DNA of 64,000 nt. It comes from Escherichia coli (GTDB lineage: Bacteria > Pseudomonadota > Gammaproteobacteria > Enterobacterales > Enterobacteriaceae). This document shows positions 57,816 to 58,014 of this stretch, piece by piece (within the stretch, counting starts at the first letter, position 1; every line of letters begins with the position of its first letter). The position numbers and the translations under genes are program-made. The stretch lies in assembly GCF_041886205.1 (NCBI RefSeq), contig NZ_CP169029.1; one strand, given 5' to 3'. The notes under the pieces are model-generated. The model ran no database searches. It was not told where the DNA came from and saw nothing but the letters and a program-made list of their open reading frames with translations.

Positions 57816-57849
57816 TAATTGCCGATTCATTTTATTGAGAAAGTGCGCG

Positions 57850-57958
57850 TCGTCATGCCGGATGCGGCGTGACCGCCTTATCCAGCCTACAAAATCATGC
57901 AAATTCAACATATTGCGATACGCTGCCAGGTCTGATAAGCGTAGCGCATCAGGCAATT
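57850..57958. repeat. Tandem REP-like elements (BIME-like) in ybiV-ybiT intergenic region
   Basis: gccggatgcggcgtgaccgccttatccagcctaca and ctgataagcgtagcgcatcaggca resemble REP consensus variants. Confidence 0.6.
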
Positions 57959-57977
57959 TTGCATTTGTCATCAGTCT

Positions 57978-58006
57978 CAGTAGCCCTGACATTATCAGGG
58001 CTACTG
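57978..58006 (-). terminator. Perfect 12-bp stem-loop just downstream of ybiT stop (no clear U-tract)
   Basis: cagtagccctga / tcagggctactg with 5-nt loop. Confidence 0.4.
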
Positions 58007-58014
58007 GTAATAAC

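Follow-up and report, generated by a model that had tools for sequence, protein, structure and literature searches.

Results

Genes and features at the locus

The window analysed here, a stretch of 64 kb of Escherichia coli DNA, carries in succession the genes ybiY, ybiW, ybiV, ybiT, ldtB and ybiR, of which ybiV and ybiT converge on a short spacer (Table 1). The gene names were taken over from RefSeq annotation of genomes with 100% identity to the window across 57400-58500. Within the spacer lie two REP elements in inverted orientation, a linker between them and a perfect hairpin close to the end of ybiT; the spacer folds far more stably than shuffled sequences do, with z = -3.6 for the plus strand and z = -5.8 for the minus strand. 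Elsewhere in the window, at 30903-31712 on the plus strand, a gene for a YbiV paralogue (52% amino acid identity) is found, which by synteny with CFT073 and EC958 is most likely ybjI, encoding a Cof-type HAD phosphatase.

In K-12 MG1655 the annotated order of genes is ldtB, ybiT, ybiU, ybiV, ybiW. An earlier note on this DNA had given the order ybiT-ybiU-ybiV for K-12 and had proposed that ybiU is missing from the roughly 200 bp between the end of ybiV at 57815 and that of ybiT at 58015, and the MG1655 annotation and the list of open reading frames bear out both the order and the boundaries. The absence of ybiU was confirmed by several routes: K-12 YbiU gave no match by tblastn against the 64-kb window (best E-value 2), the 1500 bp specific to K-12 gave none by blastn, no open reading frame with Pfam PF07350 lies between ybiV and ybiT of the window, and the alignment to K-12 described below agrees. 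The two REP-like elements and the perfect 12-bp hairpin that the same note had described are real features as well, with consensus matches that numbered 0 in shuffled sequences.

The K-12 YbiU protein has 421 amino acids and belongs to the Pfam family Gig2-like/DUF1479 (PF07350, at 2e-154), and its structure has been solved (PDB 2dbi, 2dbn and 2csg). A full-text literature search returned no title or abstract that gives YbiU a function or treats polymorphism of ybiU.

Table 1. Positions of genes and features in the window and, where a locus number (L) is given, of other contents of the ybiV-ybiT interval in compared genomes.
Feature	Position	Strand	Basis and remarks
ybiY	53496-54422	+	ORF listing; name via RefSeq
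ybiW	54428-56860	+	ORF listing; name via RefSeq
Divergent tract carrying the empty (ybiU-less) allele	55345-58681		~3.3 kb, ~5% different from K-12; mismatch map, sliding identity
ybiV, sugar phosphatase, 271 aa	57000-57815	+	ORF list, RefSeq; 97% aa identity to K-12 YbiV
Alternative last 7 codons and stop of ybiV	57794-57815	+	22 nt, unalignable to K-12
ybiV-ybiT spacer	57816-58014		199 bp
Junction sequence after ybiV stop	57816-57835		20 nt; no counterpart detected in K-12, cassette or divergent-ybiU alleles
REP1, y-type REP	57857-57890	+	2 mismatches to y-type consensus; 0 in shuffles
Linker between the inverted REPs	57891-57925		35 nt; also kept in K-12, LF82 and E. albertii
REP2, z-type REP, opposite in orientation to REP1	57926-57954	-	3 mismatches to z-type consensus; chance expectation 0
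Hairpin, perfect 12-bp stem with 5-nt loop	57978-57989 / 57995-58006	-	Inverted-repeat search
ybiT, ABC-F ATPase, 530 aa, convergent with ybiV	58015-59607	-	ORF list, RefSeq
ldtB	59826-60746	+	ORF listing; name via RefSeq
ybiR	60805-61923	-	ORF listing; name via RefSeq
Divergent DUF1479 allele	L005 4965-6224; L007 6969-8222; L008 6971-8224		75-77% nt and 82-84% aa identity to K-12 ybiU
DUF6960 two-gene cassette	L054 8389-9420 (ATCC 8739); L040 6817-7888 (E. whittamii)		~1 kb, AT-rich
ybiU with LacI-family regulator, MFS transporter and TIM-barrel (glycosidase-like) gene	L006 9233-14310 (RIVM_C037134)
HH97 filler between ybiV and ybiT	L004 3850-6470		2.6 kb, unannotated

The junction compared with K-12

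In a BLAST comparison with K-12, homology ends at position 57793 of the window, 22 nt before the ybiV stop, and restarts at 57836, with the 42 nt between (57794-57835) standing where K-12 has 1500 bp that comprise the last 22 nt of ybiV, the ybiV terminator, the promoter and coding sequence of ybiU, and 61 bp. The YbiV protein of the window ends in DNKAPFTL and that of K-12 in DNTSPFNS; the window protein nevertheless keeps its full length and the P-F residues. No significant match was found between the 22-nt end of ybiV in the window and the 3' end of K-12 ybiV. The same 22 nt are identical to those of ATCC 8739, a strain with the DUF6960-cassette allele (alignment score 22, against a maximum of 13 in shuffles), and similar variant ends of ybiV are seen in LF82, E. 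albertii and E. whittamii. These observations suggest that the end of ybiV is no random fusion sequence and stems from a donor haplotype, as an orthologous 3' end that has diverged.

Two candidate sources of the junction sequence were rejected. The 20 nt that follow the ybiV stop aligned locally to the 3' half of the cassette terminator hairpin no better than shuffled sequences did, and the 42 nt as a whole have no significant similarity to the 3' end or flank of ybiU or to the 3' end of K-12 ybiV. Because the 22-nt end of ybiV is shared with the cassette allele, more than one step may have led to the empty allele; it may have arisen through a single deletion or through a haplotype shared with the cassette, and the main conclusions are the same either way.

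The REP pair and its linker

Both REPs of the window have orthologues in K-12, that of REP1 at 4681-4714 and that of REP2, with 0 mismatches, at 4617-4645 of locus L001. REP elements have been described as imperfect palindromes with a terminal GTAG/CTAC tetranucleotide that lie between genes (PMC3333891), and REP1 and REP2 are intergenic imperfect palindromes of the expected 20-40 nt with such ends: REP1 ends in GCCTAC, and REP2, on the minus strand, ends in CCTGG where the consensus has CCTAC, so that its tetranucleotide is degenerate. An exact copy of the y-type consensus is present elsewhere in the window, at 12939-12972, and queries containing the spacer match a median of 7 places per E. 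coli genome, in keeping with the multi-copy nature of REPs. A match of REP1 to the Rfam family naRNA4 (RF02564; 57847-57887, minus strand) lies below threshold, at 32 bits against a gathering score of 59.5, and simply reflects that REP1 is a REP.

The linker contains the motif TGCAAATTCAACATATTGCGA at 57898-57918, which agrees at 18 of 21 positions with the L motif (chance expectation 0) and, as a putative site, is similar to the L linker to which IHF binds in BIME-1/RIB elements. The consensus sequences used for the y-type REP, the z-type REP and the L motif are backed by matches beyond chance. A BIME-1 has been defined as one y and one z1 REP in inverted orientation, present once and separated by a long, conserved linker to which IHF often binds (PMC3333891). 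The pair in the window is inverted and present as a single copy, and together with its linker it may be termed BIME-1-like, with the putative y and z types assigned by consensus and z1 and z2 taken together.

The REPs, the linker and the hairpin all align with counterparts that K-12 has between ybiU and ybiT, so the description of the spacer in the earlier note as a gap filled with REPs does not hold. Since K-12 has the same pair beside ybiU, the REPs are older neighbours of the indel and not its product. Among E. coli genomes that carry ybiU, the BIME downstream of the gene is itself polymorphic: their homology to the spacer of the window begins at query position 277/282, 296, 369/373 or 460, and derivatives of the B strain match the spacer solely from REP2 onward.

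The ybiT 3' hairpin and transcript ends

The stem of the hairpin starts 9 nt past the ybiT stop codon and exists in an empty-allele type, CAGTAGCCCTGA, and a K-12 type, CCGTCACCCCGA. Between the two, 4 of the 12 stem pairs are changed on both arms and every change is compensated, with 97% of cells paired as opposed to 25-46% in slid controls; this compensatory pairing comes from just two independent haplotypes and thus from few evolutionary events. A hairpin after the ybiT stop codon was likewise found in 25 of the 26 other loci that were folded (it was not evident in L006), and a hairpin unrelated to these two types occupies that position in the cassette allele.

In some of the other loci a U-tract follows the ybiT hairpin, and two from other genera (L031 and L034) have a canonical terminator there. 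In the window no run of T follows the 12-bp stem on either strand, which rules out a canonical intrinsic terminator, and a terminator scan of the spacer found no site. The hairpin is most likely a stem-loop that forms or stabilises the 3' end of the ybiT mRNA. On the other side, K-12 has a canonical terminator after ybiV, CCGGAGC...GCTCCGGTTTT, with stem-loop and U-tract, and the spacer of the window is without a terminator-like site. With ybiV lacking a terminator of its own in the empty allele, its transcripts should therefore reach at least the REP pair and the hairpin before they end, and the convergent ybiV and ybiT transcripts would now share these as their 3' structures.

Frequency and spread of the empty allele

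The empty junction was found as one contiguous match in 1052 of 5426 complete E. coli genomes (19.4%) with a probe of 701 nt, and ybiU-like DNA was found in 4249. A longer probe of 1101 nt returned 1085 genomes, a number inflated by cassette alleles, whose flanks were joined across the ~1-kb insert as one match. The spacer is exactly 199 bp long in LF82, CFT073, EC958 (ST131) and the type strain of E. albertii, and the empty alleles of all four align with that of the window throughout. CFT073, EC958, LF82 and NRG 857C are members of E. coli phylogroup B2, and annotated references of long standing such as CFT073 already show the empty arrangement.

The empty allele is thus old and common rather than specific to a strain, and the strain-specific deletion suggested by the earlier note is contradicted by the presence of the same junction in about a fifth of the complete genomes, B2 references among them, and in E. 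albertii. Because the junction measures 199 bp in the lineage of the window, in B2 strains and in E. albertii, we infer that the allele has a single origin. The absence of ybiU is an ordinary presence/absence polymorphism, as opposed to a new deletion mediated by repeats.

Synteny in other genera

A synteny scan with YbiV, with one genome taken per species, yielded 47 loci, and in about 35 enterobacterial species other than E. coli ybiV is directly followed by ybiU, among them species of Citrobacter, Klebsiella, Raoultella, Enterobacter, Lelliottia, Trabulsiella and Pluralibacter. Wherever the locus extends far enough ybiT and ldtB come next, and the whole order ybiW-ybiV-ybiU-ybiT-ldtB is kept in Citrobacter and Trabulsiella. 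A fragment of K-12-type ybiU, 93.8% identical, is also present in another Escherichia species (L046).

Between K-12 and Citrobacter, ybiU is 80-86% identical in nucleotide sequence and the flanking genes 79-87% (ybiW ~84.5%, ybiV ~80%, ybiT ~87% and ldtB ~83%). A recent transfer of ybiU from Citrobacter to K-12, which the 96% amino acid identity of one Citrobacter YbiU might bring to mind, was rejected, as the nucleotide identity equals that of the flanks. The figures for ybiU fit vertical inheritance. K-12 and other genera agree in the C-terminal end of YbiV (DNTSPFN.) and in the terminator that follows, and the ending found with the empty allele, [DE]NK[AP]PF[TN]L, is seen in Escherichia alone. 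The second suggestion of the earlier note, a lineage that never had ybiU, is not supported, given the synteny of ybiV and ybiU across the Enterobacteriaceae and a divergence from Citrobacter like that of the neighbouring genes.

A divergent tract carries the empty allele in the window

Mismatches to K-12 number 3 in 54034-55344, about 165 in 55345-58681 (the indel uncounted) and 4 in 58682-62570, and the backbone flanking the divergent tract is ~99.8-99.9% identical to K-12. Because the tract is sharply bounded inside a K-12-like backbone, import by recombination is indicated, and the lineage of the window appears to have lost ybiU by allelic replacement through homologous recombination rather than by a deletion of its own. 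No obvious donor of 55345-58681 was present among the sampled genomes, identities being 95-97% for LF82, 88-93% for E. albertii and 96-99% for ATCC 8739. The most divergent part of the tract is the region between ybiW and ybiV, 56861-56999, which is ~90% identical to K-12 and LF82, 84% to E. albertii and 99% to ATCC 8739; the promoter haplotypes of ybiV thus differ between strains.

The nearest complete genome is that of strain wlxctx60, with 99.98% identity over 29.6 kb. A displaced copy of ybiU was sought with a combined probe in which ybiW, ybiV and the junction were joined to ybiU in opposite orientation, and which gives two matching places in typical ybiU-bearing genomes. In all ten of the genomes at least 99.7% identical to the window, used as proxies for the isolate, it gave one matching place, and hence no sign of ybiU at another chromosomal site (chromosome records, at the sensitivity of megablast).

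Other contents of the ybiV-ybiT interval

Further alleles occupy the same interval. In 159 of the 4249 genomes with ybiU-like DNA the site holds a divergent DUF1479 gene, 60-80% identical, which also occurs in Escherichia sp. E1V33. Its distance from K-12 ybiU equals that of the Klebsiella gene, and the genes on either side of it have 97-98% identity to K-12 in L005 and 88-96% in L007 and L008. Judged from its sequence, the divergent allele may have been imported or may be very old.

The cassette found in ATCC 8739 is present in 41 E. coli genomes and comprises an open reading frame of 93 amino acids, a gene for a DUF6960 protein and a partial pseudogene on the reverse strand; the copy in E. 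whittamii has 88% identity. Searches of its proteins against Pfam and PADLOC returned DUF6960 alone and no match to a defence system. In some E. coli, RIVM_C037134 being the example, an island of LacI-family regulator, MFS transporter and TIM-barrel genes lies between ybiU and ybiT and overlaps the 3' end of ybiU. The filler in HH97 has only ~140 bp of ybiU-like remnant, no open reading frames that match Pfam, and the REP2 half of the BIME only.

At least five contents of the interval are thereby distinguished: K-12-type ybiU, the divergent DUF1479 gene, the empty state, the DUF6960 cassette, and ybiU with the LacI/MFS/glycosidase island. Two of them occur in more than one species, the empty state in E. 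coli and E. albertii and the cassette in E. coli and E. whittamii.

Discussion

A probable loss of ybiU and import of the empty allele

We suggest that the absence of ybiU from the window is best explained by an old ybiU-less allele of single origin, in the making of which the REPs were not mediators, and which was imported here on a tract of ~3.3 kb; we consider this account probable. According to it, the ancestor of the Enterobacteriaceae would have had ybiU between ybiV and ybiT, and an old event within Escherichia would have removed ~1.5 kb that held the terminator of ybiV together with the promoter and coding sequence of ybiU. The pre-existing BIME-1-like REP pair and the ybiT 3' hairpin would have been left in place, and ybiV would have been left with a different set of last seven codons. 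The empty allele would then have reached the lineage of the window on the homologous-recombination tract 55345-58681, with no deletion made by that lineage itself. Because of the synteny in other genera, the vertical pattern of divergence, the C-terminus restricted to Escherichia and the BIME common to K-12 and the empty allele, we infer that the empty state reflects loss from an ancestor that bore both ybiU and the BIME, and not a gain of ybiU.

The alternative that survives best, possible in our judgement yet not the one we favour, differs in how the empty allele came about. It holds that the allele derives from a diverged donor haplotype with the NK[AP]PF[TN]L end of ybiV, which was also the source of the DUF6960 cassette, either through loss of the cassette or through recombination of a cassette-type left flank with a right flank bearing the BIME. 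The last 22 nt of ybiV that the window shares with ATCC 8739 and the variant C-terminus in E. whittamii speak for such a haplotype, as do the conserved length and P-F residues of YbiV, which would suit an orthologous, diverged end. However, the 20 nt after the ybiV stop have no significant similarity to the cassette allele, which moreover is without the BIME and has another hairpin after ybiT, and an intermediate allele was not found. This alternative touches the path alone; a ybiU-bearing ancestor and an old, common empty allele are unaffected by it.

More tentatively, and with a good deal of doubt, the variety of contents could be read to mean that ybiV-ybiT is an old multi-allelic exchange site, with at least five contents, alleles that cross species, movement on short tracts and, possibly, selection. 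If true, this could mean that balancing or niche-specific selection acts on ybiU and its replacements, as opposed to neutral loss.

It is improbable, to our minds, that the empty state is ancestral in Escherichia and that ybiU was inserted or re-acquired horizontally in K-12-like lineages. The occurrence of the empty allele in E. albertii and of the distinctive 3' end of ybiV in E. whittamii would accord with this, the divergent DUF1479 allele (75-77% nucleotide identity) demonstrates that alleles are exchanged at the site, and there is the one Citrobacter sequence that is so close to K-12 YbiU in amino acids. Yet the nucleotide identity of ybiU to Citrobacter resembles that of its flanks and bears no sign of recent transfer, the five-gene order is kept in Citrobacter and Trabulsiella, the C-terminus and terminator of K-12 ybiV are those of other genera, and the BIME of the empty allele is the same as in K-12.

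That REPs recombined to delete ybiU recently and in this strain only, a model that builds on the deletion and the possible REP recombination of the earlier note, is very improbable. The REPs do adjoin the junction, and REPs and BIMEs have been described as targets and substrates of rearrangements (PMC3333891, PMC1525189). Both, however, are retained in the window as orthologues of the K-12 pair and stand entirely on the right-hand side of the indel. That pair gives the sole REP matches in 10 kb of K-12, with none between ybiV and ybiU; no pair of REPs was therefore available to delete the gene, and a comparison of the REP content at the junction, which the note had proposed, finds the orthologous pair retained and no REP on the ybiV side. 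The wide occurrence of the junction, in E. albertii as well as E. coli, and the position of the allele on an imported tract argue against such a deletion too. An artefact of assembly or annotation in which ybiU was collapsed or missed can be set aside, given the same contiguous sequence in 1052 independently finished genomes and a window with neither an open reading frame nor a tblastn signal for ybiU.

The preferred account, loss of ybiU in an old allele that was later imported, has several implications. Roughly one in five E. coli can dispense with the gene, major extraintestinal pathogenic lineages among them, and a K-12-like strain can lose it by importing a pre-existing empty allele. REPs that adjoin an indel need not be its cause, for which ybiU may serve as a cautionary case. 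The natural alleles also provide ready comparisons for studies of YbiU, of 3'-end formation in ybiV and ybiT, and of BIME function.

Comparison with known systems

The closest counterparts of the locus are in the B2 references (CFT073, EC958/ST131, LF82 and NRG 857C), in which, as in the window, ybiV and ybiT converge on a 199-bp spacer without ybiU, ybiV has the variant C-terminus, and the REP pair and the CAGTAGCCCTGA hairpin are present. They differ from the window allele by ~5-7% in nucleotide sequence across the junction, and the backbone of the window is K-12-like, unlike theirs. K-12 MG1655 (b0820-b0822) has orthologues of the genes on both sides, of the two REPs and their linker, and of the 12-bp hairpin that follows ybiT, but it also contains the additional ~1.5 kb, made up of the ybiV terminator, ybiU (421 amino acids) and 61 bp, and another YbiV C-terminus. 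The other alleles occupy the same ybiV-ybiT interval as that of the window, in chromosomes that are otherwise syntenic. As to its repeats, the spacer resembles BIME-1/RIB (RIP) elements in having a single copy of inverted y-like and z-like REPs, a long conserved linker with a motif like an IHF site, and a position at the 3' ends of transcription units.
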